A stretch of 64,000 bases of DNA from an uncultured Gemmatimonadales bacterium (GTDB taxonomy: Bacteria; Gemmatimonadota; Gemmatimonadetes; Gemmatimonadales; GWC2-71-9). Position 1 is the first letter of the stretch; the number at the start of each line of letters is the position of its first letter. The notes under the pieces were generated by a model that searched no databases, was not told where the DNA came from, and was given only the letters and a program-made list of their open reading frames with translations. Made by a program: the position numbers and the translations under genes. The stretch covers positions 448,001 through 512,000 of the forward strand of contig CAVSQW010000015.1 in assembly GCA_963730185.1 (NCBI GenBank). The letters run 5' to 3'. Below are positions 43,305 through 56,657 of this stretch, piece by piece.

Positions 43305-44024
43305 ATGGTTCTGACGCTGCAAGCCACGACGCAGGTCCCCGCCAGCGTCTGGGAGCTGGTCCTCTACTCCAGTCTCGAAACCAAGATCGTCCTCGGCGTC
43401 ACGCTGGTGTTCTCCTTTTTCTCCTGGTTCTTGATCGTCTTCAAGGGGTGGCAGTTCCGGCGTCTGCGGCGCCAGGGGGAGCGCTTCTTCCTGGCCGTGG
43501 AGGCGGCTCCCAAACTCCAGGATGCCTACCGGGTGGTCGCCAAGCTTCCGGCCTCGCCGTTCCACCGGCTGTTCCGCGAGGGGATGACGTTCTACAACGA
43601 GATTCGGCCCGGGGTGGTGCTCGATGGGCCGCCGCCTCAGCACCGCGCCTTCGAGCCCACCCAGCTCGAGGCCTTCAAGATGGTGCTCGGCAAGGAGGTC
43701 GCGACCGAACGCGACCAGGCCGGCCGGTTCGTGCCGTGGCTGGCGACCATCGGGAGCGTCAGTCCGCTCCTGGGTCTGCTGGGGACGGTGCTGGGCGTCA
43801 TGGACGCCTTCATCGGGATCAGCACCAAGGGGTCGGGCAACATCTCGGCCGTGGCGCCCGGCGTCGCGGAGGCCCTGATCACCACGGTGGCCGGCCTGGC
43901 TGCGGCGATTCCGGCCGTCATGGCCTACAACTACTTCGCCGGGAAGACGAGCCAGTTCGAGGGCGACCTCGAAGGGTTCGGCGCCGCGCTGGTGGGTTGG
44001 ATGGCGCGTGAGGGGTGGCTCTAG
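43305..44024 (+). CDS. tolQ: TolQ (MotA/TolQ/ExbB family)
   Basis: LATIGSVSPLLGLLGTVLG, APGVAEALITT..GL..AIPA; tol-pal context. Confidence 0.9.
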   Translation: MVLTLQATTQVPASVWELVLYSSLETKIVLGVTLVFSFFSWFLIVFKGWQFRRLRRQGERFFLAVEAAPKLQDAYRVVAKLPASPFHRLFREGMTFYNEIRPGVVLDGPPPQHRAFEPTQLEAFKMVLGKEVATERDQAGRFVPWLATIGSVSPLLGLLGTVLGVMDAFIGISTKGSGNISAVAPGVAEALITTVAGLAAAIPAVMAYNYFAGKTSQFEGDLEGFGAALVGWMAREGWL

Positions 44025-44025
44025 C

Positions 44026-44457
44026 ATGGCGGGCGGGTTGGGGAGCGGGCTCGGTGGGCGGCGGCGGCTCGTGCCGAACGCCGACATCAACGTCACCTCG
44101 TTGGTCGATATCGCCTTCGTTCTCCTGATCATCTTCATGATCACCGCGCCGATCATGCAGGGCGGGGTGGACGTGGAGCTCCCCAAGGCGGAGGCCCGAC
44201 CGATCACGTCGAAGGACGGCGTGGTGGTCAGCGTGGATCGGCAGGGCCAGATCTGGGTCGACAACATCCGGGTGTCGTATCCCGAGCTTCAGGCGAGCAT
44301 CCGGCGCCTGGTGGATCAACGGAACACGTCGAGCGTCTACGTTCGGGGTGACCGGAACGTCCCATACGGTACCGTCGTCCGGGTGCTGGCGGCGCTGCAC
44401 GACGCGGGCATCACGTCGGCGGGCCTGGTCACCGAGGAGGAAGACGTCCGCCGATGA
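44026..44457 (+). CDS. tolR: TolR (ExbD/TolR family)
   Basis: INVTSLVDIAFVLLIIFMITAP, VRGDRNVPYG. Confidence 0.9.
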   Translation: MAGGLGSGLGGRRRLVPNADINVTSLVDIAFVLLIIFMITAPIMQGGVDVELPKAEARPITSKDGVVVSVDRQGQIWVDNIRVSYPELQASIRRLVDQRNTSSVYVRGDRNVPYGTVVRVLAALHDAGITSAGLVTEEEDVRR

Positions 44458-45143
44458 GGTTCCGACGGACCGTGGCCATGCCCCGGGGCGGCTTTGCGGT
44501 GGGGCTCGTGGGGACGACGGTGGTGCACCTGGCGGCGCTGGCCGCCTTGGTGGCGAGTGTGATGCTCCGGCCGAAATCCTACCAGCCGACGATCTACTCG
44601 GTCGAGCTGGTGGCGGCCCCGGCGCCGACCCGCGCGCCCAAGCCCCGAGCCGAGACGCCGCCGGCGCCGCCCCCGCCGCCGGTGGCGCCGACCAAGCCCG
44701 AGGTGAAGAAGGCACCGGTACCGAAGCCCAAGGTGCCGAAGAAGATCGATCCCAAGGTGGAGCCGACCACCAAGCCCGTGACCCAGGAGGTCCCGAATCC
44801 CGGGGCGACGCCCAGCACCGGCAACGACGTCGACAACGTCCGGGTGGAAGGGAAGGTCTTTCCTTTCCCGGACTATCTCCGCCGGATCGTGAACGAGATC
44901 CTCCGGCGCTGGTCGGCCCCGACCGGCCTGCCGCTCTCGGCGGAAGTGAGTTTTACCATCATGCGGGACGGTTCGGTGACGAACATCAGAGTCGTGCGAT
45001 CCTCACGGAACTACACCTTCGACCTCGAGGCCGAGGGGGCGGTCGAGCAGGCCGGTGGAGACAAGGCCTTCGGGCCCCTGCCGACCGGTTGGCCGCAGGA
45101 GACCCTCGACGTGGCTTTCCACTTCACCCCGAGGGAGCGCTAA
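44454..45143 (+). CDS. TolA/TonB-family energy transducer
   Basis: N-terminal TM helix with His; Pro/Lys-rich linker; TonB_C-like domain (FTIMRDGSV...SS...FD). Confidence 0.8.
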   Translation: MRFRRTVAMPRGGFAVGLVGTTVVHLAALAALVASVMLRPKSYQPTIYSVELVAAPAPTRAPKPRAETPPAPPPPPVAPTKPEVKKAPVPKPKVPKKIDPKVEPTTKPVTQEVPNPGATPSTGNDVDNVRVEGKVFPFPDYLRRIVNEILRRWSAPTGLPLSAEVSFTIMRDGSVTNIRVVRSSRNYTFDLEAEGAVEQAGGDKAFGPLPTGWPQETLDVAFHFTPRER

Positions 45144-46462
45144 TGCGTCGTTGGCTGATCCTGGGACTGCTCGGCGTGGGGTTGGCGGGCCCGGCCACTG
45201 CGCAGGTACCGGACTCCTCGCGAGCCCAGGCTCGCGACACAGTCGTCCTCTACGGCAAGTACAACCCGGCCGTGCGGCCGGCCATCGTGATCCTGCCAGG
45301 GCCGGGGATCGACTCGGTCCGGTCGATCTTCGCGCGCGACCTCGATTTCAGCGACCGGTTCGAAATCATCGCCCTGCCGGACGGTGGGGCGCCGGTGGCG
45401 GCCACGGATAGCGCGCTGATCAACTACGAGCTGTATCGGACACTTCGCGCCTCGCTGGCAGTCGAGCTCTCAGGCGAAAGTGGAAATGTTACCATCCGTC
45501 TCTTCGATCTTCTCAACGAGCGGGTTCGGAACGAGATGACCGTGCCGGTGGACGGCTCCGGGGTGGGCGAGGCCCGGATGTCGGTGCACCGGATGTCGGA
45601 CGACGTGGTGGGGTGGATCACCGGGCGCTCGGGCGTGGCGGCGACCCGGATTCTGTACCTCAACCGGGTCGACGCCCGGGTCTATCGGGTGGACAGCGAC
45701 GGATACGGCGCGGTGCCGGTGACGCCGCCGGGCCAGCTGGTGGTGTCGCCGACCTGGTCTCCGGACGGGTCGCGGCTGGCGTATACCCAGTTGGGCGGTC
45801 CGGGGCCGGGCGTGATCATGCTTCAGTCGATCGCCACCGGAACCAGGTTGGTGGTCCCGACGACCGACCAGGGGCAGAATATCACCCCGGCCTTTTCGCC
45901 TGACGGGCGGAGCCTGATGTTCTCGCGGATGACCGAGCAGGCGTCGAACCTCTACGCCGTGAACGTGGCCGACCTTTGCTGCGCGGAACGCCTGACGGCA
46001 GGCAGGTTTGCGCAAAATCTATCGCCCGTCTATTCTCCCGATGGCCGGCGCGTCGCGTTCGTCTCGAACCGGTCCGGGTCGCCTCAGATCTACTCGATGG
46101 CGGCCGACGGCACGGACCAGGATCTCCTGGTTCCGTACGACTTTGGATCTACCGGATCGTCGTATGCGCCGGACTGGTCACCTGACGGAACCACCATCGT
46201 GTTTCACCGGGAGTTCGACGGCGTGCCTCAGGTCGTCAGCTTCGATCTGGCCAGCCGGGTGGTACGTCAGCGAACCTCGTCGGGCCGGAACGAGGACCCG
46301 AGTTTCGCCCCCGACAGCCGCCATGTGGTATTCGTATCGAACCGGTCGGGACGAGGGCAGCTCTTCGTCATCGATCTCGAAACCGGTCGGGTCCGGCAGA
46401 TTATCACGCCTGGGGTGGCCCGCCTGCCCTCCTGGTCCCGTTCGCTCACACGTGGGAGATGA
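45143..46462 (+). CDS. tolB: Tol-Pal beta-propeller protein TolB
   Basis: DLDFSDRF plus repeated P.WSPDG (PD40) units. Confidence 0.88.
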   Translation: MRRWLILGLLGVGLAGPATAQVPDSSRAQARDTVVLYGKYNPAVRPAIVILPGPGIDSVRSIFARDLDFSDRFEIIALPDGGAPVAATDSALINYELYRTLRASLAVELSGESGNVTIRLFDLLNERVRNEMTVPVDGSGVGEARMSVHRMSDDVVGWITGRSGVAATRILYLNRVDARVYRVDSDGYGAVPVTPPGQLVVSPTWSPDGSRLAYTQLGGPGPGVIMLQSIATGTRLVVPTTDQGQNITPAFSPDGRSLMFSRMTEQASNLYAVNVADLCCAERLTAGRFAQNLSPVYSPDGRRVAFVSNRSGSPQIYSMAADGTDQDLLVPYDFGSTGSSYAPDWSPDGTTIVFHREFDGVPQVVSFDLASRVVRQRTSSGRNEDPSFAPDSRHVVFVSNRSGRGQLFVIDLETGRVRQIITPGVARLPSWSRSLTRGR

Positions 46463-47019
46463 CTGACATGCAGCTGCGATCCCTCGTTCTCGCCGGGCTG
46501 GTGTTTGCCGTCGCGTGCGGTAAGAAGAAGCCCGAGACCACGCCGGAGCCGACGTCCGGACCCGTTGCCCCGCCGCCCGCACCGGCGCCGGCCCCGCCCC
46601 CGCCGCCGCCGGCCGACAACTCCGCCGCCGAGGCCGCGATGCGGGCCGAGCTGATGGGCTCGCTCACGGCGCCGATCCACTTCGAGTACGATCAGGACGC
46701 GATCAGCTCGATGGATGCCGCGATCCTCGACCGGAAGGCCGCGATCATGCAGGCCAACCCGGGCGTCCGGATCCGGATTGCGGGTAACGCCGACGAGCGC
46801 GGCTCCGACGAGTACAACCTGGTGCTCGGCACCAAGCGGGCGACGGCGGCCAAGCGCTATCTCGAGTCCAAGGGGATTGACGCCGGTCGGGTCGACATCA
46901 TCTCCTACGGCGAGGAGCGGCCGGTCGACCGGGGCGAGAACGACGCGGCCTGGGCCAAGAACCGGCGTGACGACTTCGAGGTGGTGTCCGGCGCCGAGCG
47001 CCTGGTCGCGCCCAGATGA
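46459..47019 (+). CDS. pal: Peptidoglycan-associated lipoprotein
   Basis: Lipobox AVA-C; IHFEYD, GNADERGSDEYN, SYGEERP, NRR. Confidence 0.92.
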   Translation: MTDMQLRSLVLAGLVFAVACGKKKPETTPEPTSGPVAPPPAPAPAPPPPPPADNSAAEAAMRAELMGSLTAPIHFEYDQDAISSMDAAILDRKAAIMQANPGVRIRIAGNADERGSDEYNLVLGTKRATAAKRYLESKGIDAGRVDIISYGEERPVDRGENDAAWAKNRRDDFEVVSGAERLVAPR

Positions 47020-47813
47020 TCCGCCGGCTCGGCGTCGCGGGTCTCCTCCTGGTGGCGGGGTGCGCCACCAAGGGCAACGTTCGACGGGTGGAGACCCAGG
47101 TGGCCGTCCTCCGCGCCGAGACCGCGCGGCAGGACTCGGCCCGTGCCGCCGAGCTGTCCCGGATCATCCGGTTGCAGCAATCCATCCTGGACTCGCTGGC
47201 CGCGGGGCGGCAAGCCCTGCACGTGCTGGATGCCCGGCTGGGCAACGACTTGGTCGACATCCAGCGCCAGCTGCTCCAGGTCCAGGAGCTTGCCGGGCAG
47301 AGCCAGGCCCGGCTTTCCCGGTTGCAGGCCAATCTCGACGCTCGAGCCGCCGCCGCCCAGGTCGAGACCGCGAACGCGATGGCCGACTCGACCCATGCCG
47401 ATTCGGCCGCCGCGGCTCCGCCGCCCCCGATGCAGGCGCCCTCCGCCGATCAGATGTATCAGGGCGCGCTTCAGCAATTCCGCCGGGGCAGCGTGATTCT
47501 GGCGCGGCGGGCCTTCCTGGATTTCTTGAAGACCTACCCGGACCACCCCCTCGTCCCGGACGCGACGTACTACGTCGGTGAGACGTTCGAGACCGAAGCG
47601 CCCGATTCGGCGCTGGCCCGCTACAACGAGGTGGTCAAGCGCTTCCCGCAATCCACCCGGGCGCCGACCGCCCTGTACAAGATCGGGCTCATGGCCGAAC
47701 GTCGACAGGATGCGTCCACGGCACGCGCGACGTACCAGCGCGTCATTCAGCAGTACCCGCGGTCGGAGGAGGCCGACCTCGCCCGCGAACGATTGGCGAG
47801 CCTCAAGCCGTAA
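47016..47813 (+). CDS. cpoB: Cell division coordinator CpoB/YbgF
   Basis: Lipobox VAG-C; coiled coil; C-terminal TPRs; follows pal. Confidence 0.82.
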   Translation: MIRRLGVAGLLLVAGCATKGNVRRVETQVAVLRAETARQDSARAAELSRIIRLQQSILDSLAAGRQALHVLDARLGNDLVDIQRQLLQVQELAGQSQARLSRLQANLDARAAAAQVETANAMADSTHADSAAAAPPPPMQAPSADQMYQGALQQFRRGSVILARRAFLDFLKTYPDHPLVPDATYYVGETFETEAPDSALARYNEVVKRFPQSTRAPTALYKIGLMAERRQDASTARATYQRVIQQYPRSEEADLARERLASLKP

Positions 47814-47825
47814 GCAGGACCCTCC

Positions 47826-50800
47826 ATGGCGCGGTCCCTTGGCGAAATGCCGTTCCTCGATCACCTCGAGGAGCTCCGATCCCGAATCCTGAAGGCGCTC
47901 GCGGCGCTCATCGTCGGCGTGGGTCTCGGGATCTGGCTGGTGGATCGCTTCAAGCTGATCGACATCATCAAGGCGCCGATCACGCCGCTCCTTCCGACCG
48001 GCCGGCTGGTAGTGCAGGGGCCCACCGAGCCGATCATGATCCTGCTCAAGCTCGGGTTCGTGACCGGGCTGGTGCTGGCTTCGCCGGTGATCGTCTGGCA
48101 GATCTGGGCCTTTCTCTCGCCGGCCCTCTACGCCAAGGAAAAGAAGGCGGTCATCCCGTCGCTCTTCGCCGGGTTGGTCCTCTTCCTCACCGGCTCGATC
48201 CTGAGCTTCGTGTACGTGGTGCCCCGGGCCTTGCAGGTCTTGCTCGGGTTCCAGGCCGGCTCCTTCGAGAACCTGATCACGTTCGAGAAGTACTACGACT
48301 TCGTGCTCCAGGTGGTCCTGGCGATGGGGCTGTCGGCCGAGCTGCCGATGGTCATCATCCTCCTGGCGATGCTCGGCGTGGTGACGCCGAAGATGCTGGG
48401 CCGCTTCCGCCGCTACGCGATCGTGTTGTCGTTCGCCGCCGGCGCGGTCCTCTCGCCGGGGACCGACGTCTTCACGATGCTGCTGATGACGGCCCCCCTG
48501 ATTCTCCTCTACGAGGTCGGGTACCTCGGGACCGTGATCGTGCACCGGCGCCGGCTCAAGGCGGCCGCGCGCGCGGCCGCGATCGGGCTCCTGCTCCTCC
48601 TGGCCCTGGCGCCGAGTCGGGCGGAGGCGCAGCGGCCACCGGTGCAGCGGGCCCCACCGGGTCGGCAGGCCGTCGATTCCCTGGCCGACTCCCTCCGCAA
48701 CCGGCCGATCGACTCCGCCAGTGCCCGCCGTCTGGGGCTCCCCACCGCCCCGAGCCTCAGCTTCCCCGCCGCCGACTCCATCATCAACGCCCTGCTCGAT
48801 CTCGAGGGCTTCGAGACCACCCGCTACCGGGCCGACACCGCCCAGGTGAACGCCGTAACGCGGGGCATCAAGCTCGAAGGGCACGCCATGACCGAGCGGG
48901 CCGGCTCCACGCTCGAGGCCGGGATCATCACCTATCGGGAGGGGGACTGCCGGTTCGAGGCGGAGCGGGGCCCCCAGCTCTTTCAGGCGGGGACGGTGGT
49001 CGTCGGCTCGGGGGTCAAGTACGACACCTGCGTCCAGCGCGGTCTGGTGCAGAACGGACTGACTTCGTTTCCGCAGGGAGGGGCCAACTGGTATCTCCGG
49101 GGCAACATCGCGATGGACTCGTCGTCCAGTCGGGTCTACGCCAGCGCCCGGGAGGTGACCAGCTGTGATCTGCCCGAAGCCCACTATCACTTCTCCGCCC
49201 GCGAGCTCAAATGGATCAGCGGGTCGGTGATGGTGGCCCGGCCGGCGGTGCTCTACATCCGCGACGTCCCGATCGCCTGGATCCCGTTCCTTTTCCAGGA
49301 CACCAAGCGGGGCCGACGGTCGGGTATCCTGACGCCCCAGTTCGGTTTCAACGACATCGTCCGGCCCTCGCGCGGCTACAACCGGACCATCCAGAACATC
49401 GGCTACTACTGGGCCCCGAACGACTATCTGGACGTGCTCGGCCGGTTCGACTGGTTCTCCAACCGGTACATCGAATTCGGGCTCGAGGGACAGTACCGCT
49501 GGATCAACCAGAACATGCGGGGCGCGGTCAGCTATTCGAAGAGCAAGCAGATCGGCGCGGGCGGCGGGACCAACACCCGGATCGTCTGGAACAACTCCTG
49601 GACCCGGAACAACACCACGCGGATCAACTGGAACGTTGACTACTCCACCAATTCGCAGATCATCCGGAACAACTCGATCGACCCCCGGTTGGTGACCCAG
49701 GACATCCGGAGCTCGGGGACGATCAGCAAGCAGTACCGGTGGGGCAACCTCAGCATCGGCGGCACCCGGAGCCAGAGCGTGACCGACGGCAGCGGCCGCC
49801 AGACCCTGCCGTCGGTGACCCTGTCGCCCAAGCCGATCGATCTCGGAACGACCTTCACCTGGTCGCCCGACCTGAGCTTCACCATCGAGAACGCGTTCAA
49901 GCAGGCCCGGCCGTCGCTCCTGATTCCCCGCGACGACGGCACCGTCGACACCGTCAAGGTGACCGGCTCGAACCGGGCCGCCAGGTTCAATCTGAACACG
50001 CCCCTCCGGATTGGCGGGTTCAACTGGACCAACTCGATGACCTACATCGATTCGAGCTCGGTCGGCGCCCGGCAGGCGACGGTCCGGATCCCCGACGAGA
50101 GCACCGCCGACCCGACCGACTCGGTGACCGTGCGGCGGCTCAGCAACAGCGGGTTCGGCAGCGGCTTCAATTGGAACACCAGCATCAACCTTCCGATCCT
50201 CTTCCGGAACAGCTGGAAGGTGACGCCCTCGCTCGGCATCACCAACACCACCAGCGGCGACTTCGCGGTCCGGAACGCCCGGACCGACGGGCAGTGGGTG
50301 ACCCAGGGCAAGCGGTTTCAGTTCGGCGTCTCGATGGCGCCGACCTTCTACGGCTTCTTCGGCGGGATCGGCCCACTGGCCCGGATCCGGCACACCATTC
50401 AGCCCAGCCTGAGCTACGCCTACGCCCCCTCCGCCACGGTGCCGCTGGCCTACGCCCAGGCCGTGACCTCGCCGGGGCAAACGCCGCGGCTTCGGAGCGA
50501 TCCGACCCAGACGCTGACCCTGACCCTGAACCAGAACTTCGAGGCCAAGACCCGGCGCCCACCCGGCGACACCACCGACGCCAACGTCAAGAAGGTCCGG
50601 CTGCTGAGCATCCAGACCTCGCCCATCGGGTACGACTTCGAGCAGGCCAAGCTCCCCGGCCGGGCCGGCTGGACCACCAGCTCGCTGACCAATAGCTTGA
50701 TGAGCGATCTGGTGCCGGGGTTCAACTTCTCGATCACCCACGACCTCTGGAAGGGCGTGGTCGGGAGCGACACCGCGACGCTGAGCCCGTTCCTCGCCGG

Positions 50801-51335
50801 GGTTACCGCCAGCTTCTCCCTTTCGGGTCGCACCTTCGCGTCCCTCGGCAAGCTGCTCGGCCTCGGCAACGGCAACGCGACCCCGGACGCCGGCCCGGCG
50901 GCCCAGCCGACGGGGACGGGTTACCCCGACCCGTTCGGACCGGCCCAGGCGCTTCGCCGGGGCACCGGGTTCACCTCGGCCCAGAACTACACCCGGGGCG
51001 GGCAGGGCTTCAACATGTCGGTCAACTACACCTTGAGCCGCACCCGTCCGTCGGTCACCACGCCGAATCCAACCTCGCAGAGCAACATCGCGCTCAACTC
51101 GAGCTTCTCGCCGACTCGGTTTTGGCAGGTGAACTGGACCACGCAGTACAACGGCAGCCAGCATCGGTTCGAGTCGCAGCAGCTCAACTTGACCCGCGAC
51201 CTCCATGACTGGCGGGCGACCTTCTCGTTCACCCGCTCGCCCAACGGGAACTTCGCCTTCTCGTTCCTGATCATGCTCATCGACCTGCCGGACCTCCGGT
51301 TCCCGTACCAGCAGTCGACCATCCAGCCGCAATGA
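47826..51335 (+). CDS. tatC: TatC - internal signal peptide - LptD-like outer membrane protein fusion (1169 aa)
   Basis: aa 1-243 TatC (MPFLDHLEELRSRI, WQIWAFLSPALYAKEK, SAELP, LSPGTD, LLYEVG); aa 240-268 signal-like segment; remainder LptD-like (VTSCDLPEAHYHF, VPIAWIPF, RRSGILTP, GYYWA, beta strands, RDLHDW). Confidence 0.85.
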   Translation: MARSLGEMPFLDHLEELRSRILKALAALIVGVGLGIWLVDRFKLIDIIKAPITPLLPTGRLVVQGPTEPIMILLKLGFVTGLVLASPVIVWQIWAFLSPALYAKEKKAVIPSLFAGLVLFLTGSILSFVYVVPRALQVLLGFQAGSFENLITFEKYYDFVLQVVLAMGLSAELPMVIILLAMLGVVTPKMLGRFRRYAIVLSFAAGAVLSPGTDVFTMLLMTAPLILLYEVGYLGTVIVHRRRLKAAARAAAIGLLLLLALAPSRAEAQRPPVQRAPPGRQAVDSLADSLRNRPIDSASARRLGLPTAPSLSFPAADSIINALLDLEGFETTRYRADTAQVNAVTRGIKLEGHAMTERAGSTLEAGIITYREGDCRFEAERGPQLFQAGTVVVGSGVKYDTCVQRGLVQNGLTSFPQGGANWYLRGNIAMDSSSSRVYASAREVTSCDLPEAHYHFSARELKWISGSVMVARPAVLYIRDVPIAWIPFLFQDTKRGRRSGILTPQFGFNDIVRPSRGYNRTIQNIGYYWAPNDYLDVLGRFDWFSNRYIEFGLEGQYRWINQNMRGAVSYSKSKQIGAGGGTNTRIVWNNSWTRNNTTRINWNVDYSTNSQIIRNNSIDPRLVTQDIRSSGTISKQYRWGNLSIGGTRSQSVTDGSGRQTLPSVTLSPKPIDLGTTFTWSPDLSFTIENAFKQARPSLLIPRDDGTVDTVKVTGSNRAARFNLNTPLRIGGFNWTNSMTYIDSSSVGARQATVRIPDESTADPTDSVTVRRLSNSGFGSGFNWNTSINLPILFRNSWKVTPSLGITNTTSGDFAVRNARTDGQWVTQGKRFQFGVSMAPTFYGFFGGIGPLARIRHTIQPSLSYAYAPSATVPLAYAQAVTSPGQTPRLRSDPTQTLTLTLNQNFEAKTRRPPGDTTDANVKKVRLLSIQTSPIGYDFEQAKLPGRAGWTTSSLTNSLMSDLVPGFNFSITHDLWKGVVGSDTATLSPFLAGVTASFSLSGRTFASLGKLLGLGNGNATPDAGPAAQPTGTGYPDPFGPAQALRRGTGFTSAQNYTRGGQGFNMSVNYTLSRTRPSVTTPNPTSQSNIALNSSFSPTRFWQVNWTTQYNGSQHRFESQQLNLTRDLHDWRATFSFTRSPNGNFAFSFLIMLIDLPDLRFPYQQSTIQPQ

Positions 51336-51402
51336 CGGGCGCGGGCCCGTGGGACACTGGCGTCCGCCCCGATCGGCGGTCCGCATCCTGGGAGAGACAG
51401 CG

Positions 51403-52941
51403 ATGAGCGAAAGCGGCGCGGTGCTCGCGATTGACGGGCGGTCGCTCACCGTCGAGGACGTCGTCCGGTTCGCCCGGGCGCCCGAGACCCGGCTGGCGCT
51501 CGACCCCGGCGCGCGGGAGCGCCTCGCGGCCAGCCGGGCGGTCATCGAAGGCGCGATCGCCCGCGGCGACACCATGTACGGGATCAACACCGGGTTCGGC
51601 AAGCTCGCCAACGTCCGGGTCGGCCCCGAGTCGCTGGGGGCCCTCCAGGCCAACCTGATCCGGAGCCACGCCGCCGGCGTGGGCGACCCGCTCCCGGCCG
51701 AGGTGGTCCGGGCGATGATGCTGCTCCGGACCAACGTGCTGCTCCGCGCGACCAGCGGGGTCCGGCCCAGCCTGGCGCAGGCGGTGGCCGATCTGGCGAA
51801 CGCCGGGATCGTCCCGGTCGTGCCCGAGCAGGGGAGCGTCGGGGCCAGCGGCGACCTCGCGCCGCTCAGCCACCTGGCCCTGGTCTTGATGGGCGAGGGC
51901 GACGTCTTGACTGACGACGGGGGCTGCCGTCCGGCCGCCGACGTCCTGGCGGCCGCCGGACTCACCCCGGTTCGGTTCGCGCCCAAGGAAGGCCTGGCCT
52001 TCATCAACGGGACCCAGGCCCAGACGGCCCTGCTGGCTCTCCTGGTGCACGATGCCTGGGTGGTGTGGCGGACGGCGGTCGCGGCCGCCGCGCTCAGTCT
52101 GGAAGCCCTCCGGGGCACTCCTACGCCGCTCGATCCCCGGATCCACGAGGCCCGGCCCCATCCGGGTCAGATCCGGGCCGCCGCCCTGATGCGCGACCTC
52201 CTCGAGGCCAGTGAGATCCGGGAATCGCATCGGGAGAACGACCCCCGGGTCCAGGATGCCTACAGTCTCCGCTGCAGCCCGCAGGTGCTCGGAGCGGTGG
52301 CCGACGCGATCAGCTTCGCGGACCGGGTGGTGAGCGTCGAGCTCAATGCCTCGACCGACAACCCGCTGGTGTTCGCCGACGGCGACGTGCTCTCGGGCGG
52401 TAATTTCCACGGCCAGCCGGTCGCCCAGGCGCTCGACTTCCTGGGGATCGCGCTGGTGACCCTGCAGGCGCTGGCCGAGCGTCGGGTGGAGCGGCTGGTC
52501 AACCCGGATCTCTCGCAGGGTCTCCCGGCCTTCCTGACCCGCGATCCGGGGCTCCAGTCGGGCTTCATGATGGTCCAGATCACGGCGGCGTCTCTCGTGG
52601 CGGAATCTCGGACACTGGCCTACCCGGCCAGCATCGGGTCGATTCCGACCGACGCGAACCAAGAGGACTTCGTTCCGATGGGCATGGCGGCCGCGTTCAA
52701 GGTCCGGCGGATCCTGCTGAACGCCGCGCGGGTCGTGGCCGCGGAGTTGCTGTGCGGGGCCCAGGGGCTCGAGTTCCTGGCTCCCCTCCGTCCGGGTCGG
52801 GGGGTGGCTCGGCTCCATCGGGCCCTCCGGAGCGACGCCTGGGGGGTGGCTGCTCTGGGGGCCGATCGGCCCCCAGCGCCGGACCTGGCCCGTTTGGAGC
52901 GGGGAGTGCTCGCGGGGGCCTTCGATCCCGAGGGGCAATAG
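51403..52941 (+). CDS. hutH: Histidine ammonia-lyase
   Basis: YGINTGFG, GSVGASGDLAPL (ASG/MIO), KEGLAFING, QDAYSLRC, GGNFHGQP. Confidence 0.92.
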   Translation: MSESGAVLAIDGRSLTVEDVVRFARAPETRLALDPGARERLAASRAVIEGAIARGDTMYGINTGFGKLANVRVGPESLGALQANLIRSHAAGVGDPLPAEVVRAMMLLRTNVLLRATSGVRPSLAQAVADLANAGIVPVVPEQGSVGASGDLAPLSHLALVLMGEGDVLTDDGGCRPAADVLAAAGLTPVRFAPKEGLAFINGTQAQTALLALLVHDAWVVWRTAVAAAALSLEALRGTPTPLDPRIHEARPHPGQIRAAALMRDLLEASEIRESHRENDPRVQDAYSLRCSPQVLGAVADAISFADRVVSVELNASTDNPLVFADGDVLSGGNFHGQPVAQALDFLGIALVTLQALAERRVERLVNPDLSQGLPAFLTRDPGLQSGFMMVQITAASLVAESRTLAYPASIGSIPTDANQEDFVPMGMAAAFKVRRILLNAARVVAAELLCGAQGLEFLAPLRPGRGVARLHRALRSDAWGVAALGADRPPAPDLARLERGVLAGAFDPEGQ

Positions 52942-53038: not shown

Positions 53039-55129
53039 ATGAACCTCGACAAGCTCAAAGAGTCGGCGCGCAAGTACGAGCAGGGCGGGCAATGGCGACA
53101 GGCCGTTGACGTCTACAAAAAGGCGCTCCGGGAGTTCGAGGAATCAGGCGAGGGGGTCCCCGACCCGTCGCTCTACAATCGCGTCGGCGACCTCGAGATG
53201 AAGAGCGGCGACTCGGGCGCGGCGGTCCGAGCCTACGAGCAGGCCGCCGATCTTTACACCGAGCAGGGCTTTTTTAACAACGCCATCGCCCTTTGCGGCA
53301 AGATTCTCCGGATCAACGCCAGCCGCACGGCCACCTACCTCCGCCTCGCCCAGCTGAACGCCCGCAAGAACTTCGTCGGCGAAGCCCGGAAGAACCTCCT
53401 CGAGTACGTGGACCGGATGGAGGCGCTGAACCACCGGGAAGAAGCCTTCAACTCGGTCCGGGTCTTCGCCGACCAGTTCACCGGCAACCCCGACATCCGG
53501 GTGATGCTCGTCGAGCTGCTCACCACCGCGGCCGACGGCCACGAAGGGCGGACCCAGTTCCGGAAGCTCGCCGAGGAGCTGGAGACCCGGGAAGGCGGCG
53601 TGGTCACGACCAATGGCGGCGACTTGACCCAGATTCCCGACGTCGACACGCCGGCGCCGTCGCCGATGGGGGCCGGGGCGGGCGACCTGGTGTTCATCGA
53701 CGTCGGCGCCTCCGGCCGGGTCCCCGACGCGGAGCCGGTCGAGGGCCTGGAGATTCACCGGCCGGACGAGGGCGACGCGGAGGGCTGGCGGCGCGACACC
53801 AGCCTGGTCGAAGGGCTCGAAGTCATCAGCGGCGGCGTCGACGACGATCCCGACGCGCCGGTCATCTCGGGCGCGACGCCGGCCGATCCCTTCGATGCCG
53901 ACGACCCCGACTCGATGCTGGACATCGACGCCTATCCGCCGGTGGAGGACCAGGGGGAGATCGCCCTGACCTCGGTGGACCTCGACGCGGATGCGGCCCG
54001 GGAGAGCCATCCCAGCGTAGCCATGCCCTTCGAGACGCTCGAAGACGCCACCCACGCCGATCCCCGGCAGGACGCCGTCGAGCCGGACCAAGGCACCGAC
54101 GAGGCGGATCAGGATCTCGTCTTCCTGTCGGTCGACGACGGCGAGGCCGACGACGCGCCGACGACCGCCTCGCCGACGTCGGCGGTGGACGACGATCCGG
54201 CGGTGGCGGCGCGCAGCCGGGCGCAGGTGCTGCTGGACGTGGGCGACCAAGGCGGGGCGGTGGCGGCGCTCGAGGACGCGGTCCAGCGGTTCGAGGCAAC
54301 CGGCCGCTACGACGAGGCCCTCGAGGTGGCCGATCGCCTGAGCCGGCTCGAGCCGTCGGCCGTGTTTCGCTACCAGAAGCGGGTGGAGCTGGCCTATCGC
54401 TGCGGCCGCCGCGACGTGATGCTTCAGGCCTATCTTGGCCTGGCCGACGCGCTCCTTCGGAACGGCGGTACCGACCACGCCGTGGTGGTGTACCGGCGGG
54501 TCCTCGAGCACGATCCCGGCAATGCCGTCGCCCGGGCCGCGCTGGCCAACCTGGCGCCGCCCCCGGCGGTGGCCGCCGAAGAGCCCGAGCCGCCGGCCGG
54601 GTCGTTCGTGGATCTGGGGAGCTTGATCCTCGACGAGCCCTCCAGTCGCGATACCCGGATCCGGGTTGGTCAGGCCGCCCCGATCGAAGACGAGGACCAG
54701 GCCTTTCTCGAAGCCCTGGCGCAGTTCAAGCGCGGGATCGACGAGAATCTCGATGCCGAGGATTTCCAGGCCCACTACGACCTGGGGATCGCCTTCAAGG
54801 AGATGGGACTCCTCGACGAGGCAATCGCCCAGTTCCAGAAGGCGCTCCGGTCGCCGGAAGGGCGGCTCAAGACCTCCGAGCAACTGGGGATCGCCTTCTA
54901 CGAGAAGAGCCGGTTCGCGATTTCCGAAGCGGTCCTCCGACGAGCGGTCGACAGCCTGCCCGGCGGTGACGAGGACAAGATCGGGCTGATCTACTGGCTG
55001 GGGCGGGCGGTCGAGGCGCAACGGCGTCAGGACGAGTCCGTCCGGTGCTACGAGCGGGTCCTGGCCGTCGACATCCGGTTCCTCGACGTGGGGGAGCGAA
55101 TGCAGCGCCTCACCGCGGAGCCCACATGA
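53039..55129 (+). CDS. Large TPR protein with acidic central linker (SgmX-like architecture)
   Basis: N-terminal TPRs; Asp/Glu-rich linker; C-terminal TPRs with AHYDLGIAFKEMGLLDEAIAQFQ. Confidence 0.8.
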   Translation: MNLDKLKESARKYEQGGQWRQAVDVYKKALREFEESGEGVPDPSLYNRVGDLEMKSGDSGAAVRAYEQAADLYTEQGFFNNAIALCGKILRINASRTATYLRLAQLNARKNFVGEARKNLLEYVDRMEALNHREEAFNSVRVFADQFTGNPDIRVMLVELLTTAADGHEGRTQFRKLAEELETREGGVVTTNGGDLTQIPDVDTPAPSPMGAGAGDLVFIDVGASGRVPDAEPVEGLEIHRPDEGDAEGWRRDTSLVEGLEVISGGVDDDPDAPVISGATPADPFDADDPDSMLDIDAYPPVEDQGEIALTSVDLDADAARESHPSVAMPFETLEDATHADPRQDAVEPDQGTDEADQDLVFLSVDDGEADDAPTTASPTSAVDDDPAVAARSRAQVLLDVGDQGGAVAALEDAVQRFEATGRYDEALEVADRLSRLEPSAVFRYQKRVELAYRCGRRDVMLQAYLGLADALLRNGGTDHAVVVYRRVLEHDPGNAVARAALANLAPPPAVAAEEPEPPAGSFVDLGSLILDEPSSRDTRIRVGQAAPIEDEDQAFLEALAQFKRGIDENLDAEDFQAHYDLGIAFKEMGLLDEAIAQFQKALRSPEGRLKTSEQLGIAFYEKSRFAISEAVLRRAVDSLPGGDEDKIGLIYWLGRAVEAQRRQDESVRCYERVLAVDIRFLDVGERMQRLTAEPT

Positions 55130-56115
55130 TCTCCGAGGCCGCGCCGGTGACCCTGGCCGAGCTCCAGGCTTCGGTGCAGGACGAGCTCGACCAGGTCCGG
55201 CGCTCGCTCGCCGACCTGGTCGCCGCCGACTTCGGCCTGATCGACGAGGTGAACTCCCATCTCCTCCGGATGCAGGGCAAGCTGTTCCGGCCCACGCTGC
55301 TGCTGCTCGTGAACCAGGCGACCCGGAGTCCCGATCCCCGCGCGGTTCGCCTGGCCGCGGTGGTGGAGCTGATCCACCTGGCCACCCTGGTGCACGACGA
55401 TTCGGTGGACCACTCGGTCCTTCGCCGGGGCATGCCGACGATCAACTCGCTGTTCAGCCACCAGGTCTCGGTGATCATGGGCGACTATCTGTACTCGCGC
55501 GCCGTGATCCAGCTGGTCGAGCTGGGCGACCTTCGGGCGCTCGGGGTGCTGAGCCGGGTCACCAACGAGATGACCATCGGGGAGATGCGACAGCTCCTGG
55601 CCCACGACCCGCTGACCTTCTCCGAGGAGAGCTACGACCTCCTGATCCGGGCCAAGACGGCGTCGCTCCTCTCGGGGGCGTGCGAGTGCGGGGCCCTGAC
55701 GGCGTCTCCGGAACGAACGGCCGCCATGGCCCGCTTCGGAAACGCCCTCGGAATGGCTTTTCAGATCGTCGACGACCTCCTCGACTTCACCGAGGTCGAG
55801 GCCGTTACCGGCAAGCCGTCCGGGCAGGACCTGAAGGAGCACAAAGTGACCCTACCGTTGATTCATGCCCTGCCGCGGCTCTCCCCAACGGAGCGGAACG
55901 ACGTGTCTGGCCTGATGAACACCCCCGTGCCGTCCCCCGATCAAATCGCGGTGGTGGTCGAGCACGTAGGGCAGGCGGGCGGACTCGACTACGCCCGTGA
56001 CCGGGCGATCCGGCATGGCCAGGAGGCCGAGCGGGAGTTGGAGCATCTTCCCGCGAGCCCAGCCCGGGAGCTGCTCCGGGCCAGCATCGCGTACGTGCTG
56101 GACCGCCGCCGCTGA
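55126..56115 (+). CDS. Long-chain polyprenyl diphosphate synthase
   Basis: GKLFRP, HLATLVHDD..D (FARM), KTA, FQIVDDLLD (SARM), GKP.G.DL. Confidence 0.92.
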   Translation: MISEAAPVTLAELQASVQDELDQVRRSLADLVAADFGLIDEVNSHLLRMQGKLFRPTLLLLVNQATRSPDPRAVRLAAVVELIHLATLVHDDSVDHSVLRRGMPTINSLFSHQVSVIMGDYLYSRAVIQLVELGDLRALGVLSRVTNEMTIGEMRQLLAHDPLTFSEESYDLLIRAKTASLLSGACECGALTASPERTAAMARFGNALGMAFQIVDDLLDFTEVEAVTGKPSGQDLKEHKVTLPLIHALPRLSPTERNDVSGLMNTPVPSPDQIAVVVEHVGQAGGLDYARDRAIRHGQEAERELEHLPASPARELLRASIAYVLDRRR

Positions 56116-56384
56116 TGAAAGGCCCCCGCCGCCCGCGTTTCTACGCGACCATCCTCGTCACCGGGTTCCTGCTGGGCGGCTTTCTGAACGCCTTCCTCCG
56201 GAAGGTGCTGCCCGACAGCCCGACCAAGGCCTTCTTCACCTTTTCCGTGCAGGGGGAGGTTGGCCCTGTCCCGATCAACCTGCTGGTGGTACACTTCACC
56301 CTCGGTCCGGTGGGCGTCGACATGTCACTCCTGAGTGTCGTCGGAGTCCTCCTGGCCTATCTGGTGGCGAAGTCGCTCTTTTAG
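56115..56384 (+). CDS. Small two-TM membrane protein (DUF4321-like)
   Basis: 89 aa; two hydrophobic segments around a beta hairpin; TGATG overlap. Confidence 0.6.
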   Translation: MKGPRRPRFYATILVTGFLLGGFLNAFLRKVLPDSPTKAFFTFSVQGEVGPVPINLLVVHFTLGPVGVDMSLLSVVGVLLAYLVAKSLF

Positions 56385-56399
56385 GCGGAGGCCGGCAGC

Positions 56400-56657
56400 A
56401 TGTTGGGCAACTTGGGTTTTTCGGAAATCATGATCCTCCTACTGGTCGTGCTCTTGGTGTTCGGAGCTCGCCGGCTACCCGAGATCGGGCAGTCCCTGGG
56501 CAAGGGGATTCGGGAGTTCAAGCGGAGTCTGACTGACACGCAGGAGGCGGTGACCAGCGGGATGGACGACCGGCCACAGGTGACCGGGCGTCACATCGAC
56601 GCGCCTCCCTCCCAGCAACAGCCGACCGGTAGCGAGCCGAAGCGGCTGTCGCAGTAG
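56400..56657 (+). CDS. tatA: Twin-arginine translocase TatA/TatE
   Basis: E..ILL..VLLVFGARRLPEIGQSLGKGIREFK. Confidence 0.93.
   Translation: MLGNLGFSEIMILLLVVLLVFGARRLPEIGQSLGKGIREFKRSLTDTQEAVTSGMDDRPQVTGRHIDAPPSQQQPTGSEPKRLSQ

Follow-up and report, generated by a model that had tools for sequence, protein, structure and literature searches.

A family-wide tatC-lptD gene fusion with a predicted internal signal peptide in Gemmatimonadales

TatC of the twin-arginine translocation (Tat) system has six helices and ends in the cytoplasm, and LptD passes the inner membrane by the general secretory (Sec) pathway and is folded by the β-barrel assembly machinery (BAM). The closest mechanism for making two such proteins from one gene is that of FbcH in Bradyrhizobium japonicum, which reportedly encodes a polytopic inner-membrane protein, an internal signal sequence and an exported protein; the product is said to be processed into two subunits of one inner-membrane complex, a cleavage that has reportedly been shown. 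The accessible text of PMC6976685 cites Thony-Meyer, James and Hennecke (1991; PNAS 88:5001, PMID 1647023) on the FbcH cytochrome b-c1 precursor. Here, we analyze a stretch of 64,000 nucleotides (nt; hereafter the window) from an uncultured Gemmatimonadales bacterium of the family GWC2-71-9 (assembly GCA_963730185.1, contig CAVSQW010000015.1, positions 448,001 to 512,000), in which tatC is fused in frame to an lptD-family gene. As with FbcH, one open reading frame (ORF) joins two otherwise separate proteins through an internal signal, although the two systems are not homologous: TatC and LptD come from unrelated machines, the second partner is an outer-membrane barrel, and cleavage is predicted from the genes.

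The same proteins in the same cpoB-tatC-lptD order occur in other Gemmatimonadota (families f2, f3 and f4-f10; e.g., loci L070-L076 and L184-L195), most of which have tatC and lptD adjacent and often overlapping, but as two ORFs, whose LptD has a signal peptide of its own that frequently ends in A-x-A-Q. LptD of Bacteroidota belongs to the same PF19838 family (a control search matched PF19838 in B. thetaiotaomicron), and the accessible part of a preprint (10.64898/2026.10.03.756453) links it to surface-lipoprotein export and a 27-strand barrel; these are features of the Bacteroidota protein. That part of the preprint mentions no TatC fusion ('tat' and 'gemmatimonad' both occur 0 times), and the words 'fusion' and 'fused' are absent from the available text of a TatC survey (PMC3827258). 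Within literature titles and abstract openings, a scope that leaves subscription journals and supplements uncovered, no description of a TatC-LptD fusion was found; the preprint's extended table of Fibrobacteres-Chlorobi-Bacteroidetes (FCB) phyla may bear on Gemmatimonadota. As for other TatC fusions, the best 120 matches, in a search swamped by this family, were TatC-LptD proteins or fragments, except for P0139 and P0144, which are single-contig and possibly chimeric proteins annotated with TatC plus PF01121 or PF09423.

The features of the fused gene are as follows (window coordinates; aa, amino acids).

47826..51335, + strand: tatC-lptD fused ORF of 1169 aa, fused in 119/150 family genomes
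47826..48545, + strand: TatC part, aa 1-240, with six hydrophobic segments (PF00902, TIGR00945, hydropathy, invariant residues)
48534..48542, + strand: two in-frame GTG codons (V237, V239), possible internal starts without support (no Shine-Dalgarno motif, no GTG enrichment in relatives)
48546..48587, + strand: basic segment, aa 241-254, the TatC end doubling as n-region (paired arginines in 101/112 fused junctions)
48588..48611, + strand: hydrophobic core (h-region), aa 255-262 (hydropathy)
48612..48632, + strand: c-region with the predicted signal peptidase I (SPase I) site A266-E267-A268 / Q269 (-1/-2 entropy, shuffles)
48630..51335, + strand: predicted mature LptD-family protein of 901 aa, comprising a Pro-rich linker, a periplasmic domain with Cys 375/402/447 and a barrel region (PF19838, 7omm/8h1r profile matches, Atlas 0.99)

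The frame at 47826-51335 has no internal stop, and its third-position GC lies between 0.82 and 1.0 in all full 150-nt bins, including the junction. A 1169-aa ORF with a full TatC followed by an LptD-like part had been claimed from the letters alone, and Pfam confirmed both domains. PF00902 (TatC) matches aa 12-224 (E 1.1e-59), and TIGR00945 exceeds its cut-off over the full-length profile. Residues H13, E16, R18, P87, F96, P99, P174, P211 and E230 are kept in 123/123 fused proteins and E172 in 115, among which N-terminal, loop and helix positions presumably have a functional role. This part is not a stand-alone six-helix protein, as the frame runs on into a seventh hydrophobic segment and LptD. 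PF19838 (LptD_2) matches aa 470-940 (E 1.6e-36, 126 bits against a cut-off of 22.5), profiles match the solved LptD structures 7omm (E 1.3e-4) and 8h1r (E 0.0033), the best Atlas matches are all LptD, and the periplasmic domain has three conserved cysteines. The NCBIfam PRK models score the LptD part far under cut-off, and PF04453 is matched neither by this part nor, in tblastn and profile searches, by the source genome (G000), which is 82% complete and sets the scope of all genome-wide searches reported for it. For aa 269-469, the LptD_N/jellyroll region, Pfam gives no match; the PDB profile match covers it, and PF03968 is found in the fused relative P0173 (E 4.7e-6). Taken by these profiles, the C-terminal ~900 aa are assigned to the LptD family. 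The end of the barrel (~51280-51335) has no terminal aromatic residue, and relatives end similarly.

Tblastn and profile searches of G000 returned a single TatC and a single LptD_2 match, both of them the fused ORF; another lptD or tatC, for which a check had been proposed, was not matched. Tat transport is the presumed activity of the fused copy, and insertion of lipopolysaccharide (LPS) that of the LptD part. TatA and the partner genes LptE, LptC and LptF/G are present in the genome. An LptF-LptG fusion was considered and rejected, as these are two separate ORFs. The LptF-like protein (L203, G000:C14 ~54298-56212, - strand) has a long insert with A-E-A-Q followed by a proline run, which resembles a c-region but has no hydrophobic core.

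The fusion is real, family-wide and recurrent, and not an artefact. One open frame crosses the junction in 119 of 150 family genomes, including the single-contig genomes G105 and G113, which answers the earlier suggestion to look for fused TatC proteins in relatives. This count was tallied by hand from a search with residues 1-450, G000 excluded; two of the 119 (G104 and G169) are unpublished, and without all three unpublished genomes it becomes 117/147. It includes G086, for which a TAA is listed inside the match although the junction is in frame. All 120 homologues among the matches listed carry both domains, and the LptD parts of fused family genomes are 40-98% identical (median 50%). In addition, contigs from two different soil metagenome studies bridge the junction gap-free: X1 across 48214-48812 (23 changes, 0 gaps) and X2 across 48462-48690 (8 changes, 0 gaps). 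For both runs, position 48556 is also listed with a gap of one base, which in X2 at least stems from a 40-nt partial piece. The four metagenome runs compared with the window gave only contigs of relatives, none covering the whole stretch. A sequencing or assembly error that joined two genes might draw on the presence of metagenome-derived genomes among the fusion holders and on the frameshifts inside tatC in three of them (L095 in G154, L196 in G207, L082 in G165), in which the lptD junction is still in frame and which may be assembly errors or pseudogenes; against the 119 genomes, the 120 homologues and the independent contigs, such an error has next to no probability and is refuted at the family level. 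There is neither a stop nor a larger deletion at the junction, close homologues do not all have separate genes, and LptD models are matched, so the original prediction stands where it had set out how it could fail.

At the junction, the n-region, h-region and A-x-A motif at A268/Q269 (nt 48630) read from the letters were recovered, with A-E-A preceding Q269. By our own heuristic, an internal n/h/c signal with small residues at -3 and -1 is present, and TatC's known six helices imply the correct topology for it. In fused loci, the median length of the uncharged run is 18 residues, and a Pro-rich linker follows. Relative to the first Q after the h-region, 105 of 112 fused loci have A, G or S at -1 together with a residue at -3 that is small or aliphatic, against 48.5 +/- 4.8 (maximum 65) when the preceding eight residues are shuffled 2000 times and against 50/239 for the same pattern at other linker glutamines. 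If the next Q is also allowed, a small-x-small motif followed by Q is found in 123/126 fused genomes and 118/120 database proteins. Site entropy is 0.62 bit at -1, 3.37 at -2 and 1.72 at -3, values that are partly circular because the sites were chosen by pattern. The linker has otherwise diverged, and its length and sequence vary freely among fused genomes. A lipoprotein (SPase II) site was rejected, since a lipobox occurs in 0/123 fused junctions; two SPase I genes are present in the genome.

According to the accessible text of PMC5837995, which makes no mention of Gemmatimonadota, most predicted SPase I sites in Bacteroidetes are followed by Q (the Q-rule). A picker blind to the +1 residue finds Q after the site in 108 of 126 fused junctions, and among signal-like N-termini of G000, Q follows the picked site in 144/328 cases against a background of 2.9%, albeit with a crude picker. 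Since the picker lands before Q in both sets, the junction resembles the ordinary cleavage sites of the lineage's secreted proteins, and the Q found at +1 throughout the genome suggests a Q-rule in Gemmatimonadota too.

The proposed internal signal peptide cut by SPase I is thus backed by alternating -1/-3 conservation and by Q at +1, with cleavage as the prediction. In the reading that we consider likely, a single chain would be inserted in the inner membrane and cut by SPase I into TatC with a short additional helix and mature LptD. TatC would insert its six helices, and its cytoplasmic, basic C-terminus would then serve as n-region. The seventh hydrophobic segment would act as an internal export signal that re-opens Sec and lets the 900-residue part into the periplasm. 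SPase I would cut after A268, mature LptD would start at Q269, and TatC would keep ~29 extra residues as a helix (median 27 in relatives). The released LptD would take the usual chaperone/BAM route.

Several points weigh against this reading. We infer SPase I cleavage from gene sequences alone, and the picker is our own heuristic rather than SignalP, noisy and with visible false positives. As the genomes are related rather than independent, the shuffle counts overstate significance. The site comes from the former signal peptide of LptD and would therefore be seen in a young fusion even if nothing selected for it; maintenance is argued for by the deep fused clades alone. Unlike in the Q-rule, a glutaminyl cyclase of type I (PF05096) was not found in G000 (it was found in 14/41 genomes; type II was not searched). 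Finally, a start codon with a Shine-Dalgarno-like motif is present in 11/123 junctions, though not in G000, compared with 0-5 in control windows, so a minority of genomes may keep an internal start.

These 11 junctions bear on the possibility that LptD is mostly made by internal restart at a GTG near the end of TatC helix 6, with the long frame yielding TatC whose tail is cut or degraded. The original prediction noted correctly that 48538-48846 holds no stop in any plus frame and no ATG, but overlooked the in-frame GTG codons at 48534 and 48540, either of which would give a textbook signal peptide. No Shine-Dalgarno-like motif precedes either GTG in G000, however, and ATG, GTG and TTG are all absent between the helix 6 end and the h-region in 46/112 fused loci. 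GTG is not enriched either, making up 81 of 158 valine codons in that region versus 1398 of 2570 elsewhere in tatC, and TatC would still be made as a fusion. A conserved internal start was rejected on these grounds, and we regard restart as the main source of LptD as improbable. Promoter and terminator matches did not rise above the number expected by chance (1 vs. 0.5 and 7 vs. 4.0), and no RNA data set was listed as containing the sequence.

The paired arginines could be taken for a Tat signal, by which the LptD part would be exported through Tat or held as a tethered ligand of TatC. The pair is indeed frequent at fused junctions, but it is also found in 38/48 unfused TatC tails, the Tat consensus is loosely matched in only 6/112 fused junctions and is not conserved, and barrels are established to cross unfolded via Sec. 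A Tat signal was therefore rejected as a candidate, and we give this idea very little credence.

The distribution of the fusion provides further insight. Among the 141 family loci fetched, a chosen and not a random set, 126 are fused, 10 adjacent but split and five unlinked; G154 and G149 were scored as fused from junction sequence. The fusion is also found in two of 14 f2 genomes (G035 and G233), whereas f3 has six split and two unresolved loci and the remaining families are split in 12/12 cases. In G035, the fusion has a longer acidic linker and a second tatC lies next to tatA (L068, L069). In 21 of 40 true splits, stop and start overlap as A/G-TGA, an arrangement from which a small frame-shifting indel would produce a fusion. 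In an LptD tree (FastTree, 165 rows, 647 columns, loci below 600 residues dropped, rooted on f10, four rows recoded for state from junction evidence), split outgroups are basal and 13 state changes are needed, against 39.4 with shuffled labels. Splits are nested among fused genomes (G009 with G002, G121 with G047, G022, G123, and G072 and G138 with G081 and G146), and a second tree with 30 sampled fused rows groups the fused P0172 and P0173 with f4 and f8. The trees suggest that the fusion arose independently about five times, was split again several times and lost its tatC half three times; because the f1-f3 relation has support below 0.6, f1 may contain more than one origin.

Of the 148 family genomes in which TatC was matched, 144 have a single copy. 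In five genomes (G049, G171, G044, G167 and G112), lptD directly follows cpoB and the only tatC lies elsewhere. These tatC genes (L177, L179, L180, L176 and L178, respectively) form a clade with an extra copy in G122 (L093), which retains its fusion, beside the f2 genome G260 (support 0.996), a placement that fits horizontal gain. In G171, the initial 19 codons of the former tatC survive in frame with the signal segment (a score reached by 0/500 shuffles), and in G044 they survive at the DNA level; because of these 5' remnants, we conclude that the tatC half was deleted from a once-linked locus. Given repeated fusion and fission, the fusion state is reversible and seems close to neutral.

This history also bears on a chain left uncut, or cut slowly or conditionally, in which the LptD barrel would be tethered to TatC across the periplasm. 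An essential LPS insertase would then be covalently tied to the Tat translocase in one polypeptide spanning both membranes, and BAM would fold a barrel still anchored in the inner membrane at its N-terminus. The dominance of the fusion throughout the family, the Pro-rich linker behind the hydrophobic segment and an uncharged run near the length of a short membrane anchor would suit such a tether. However, the -1/-3/+1 pattern has been conserved, the linker is free to vary in length and sequence, the two halves have come apart again on at least five occasions, and three lineages have lost tatC from the locus by deletion. Because the fusion has so often been undone or lost its tatC half, the tether that had been raised as an option is disfavoured, and an uncut chain seems unlikely to us.

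Neighboring genes in the window include the following.

43305..47813, + strand: tolQ, tolR, TonB-C/TolA-like, tolB-like, pal and cpoB-like genes (Pfam; names partly inferred from order)
51349..52941, + strand: aromatic amino-acid lyase (hutH-like), also a neighbor in many relatives (Pfam)
56400..56657, + strand: tatA, the sole TatA/B/E match in the genome (profile search)

With cpoB ending at 47813, the fused gene does begin 12 nt downstream, as first reported, but the evidence does not reach as far as a functional link of Tat, Tol-Pal and Lpt, for the cpoB-tatC-lptD order is common in unfused relatives. Since that order is usual there, the fusion is best regarded as the joining of two neighbors that were coupled beforehand; the gene would likely have arisen, more than once, when translationally coupled genes lost their stop/start overlap. 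After the lyase, 53039-56657 holds a 696-aa tetratricopeptide repeat (TPR) protein, a polyprenyl synthetase, DUF4321 and tatA.

The listed homologues, where named in databases, are called TatC only, so LptD would be scored as missing in fused genomes. A natural inner/outer-membrane polyprotein is surprising, but its likely products are ordinary. If the cleavage proposed here is correct, a whole bacterial family would produce an outer-membrane barrel that is normally essential as the C-terminal part of a polytopic inner-membrane protein. Nature would then offer an example of an outer-membrane protein that is exported behind a membrane protein and released from it by a signal peptidase cutting within the chain, and TatC would work with an extra C-terminal helix.

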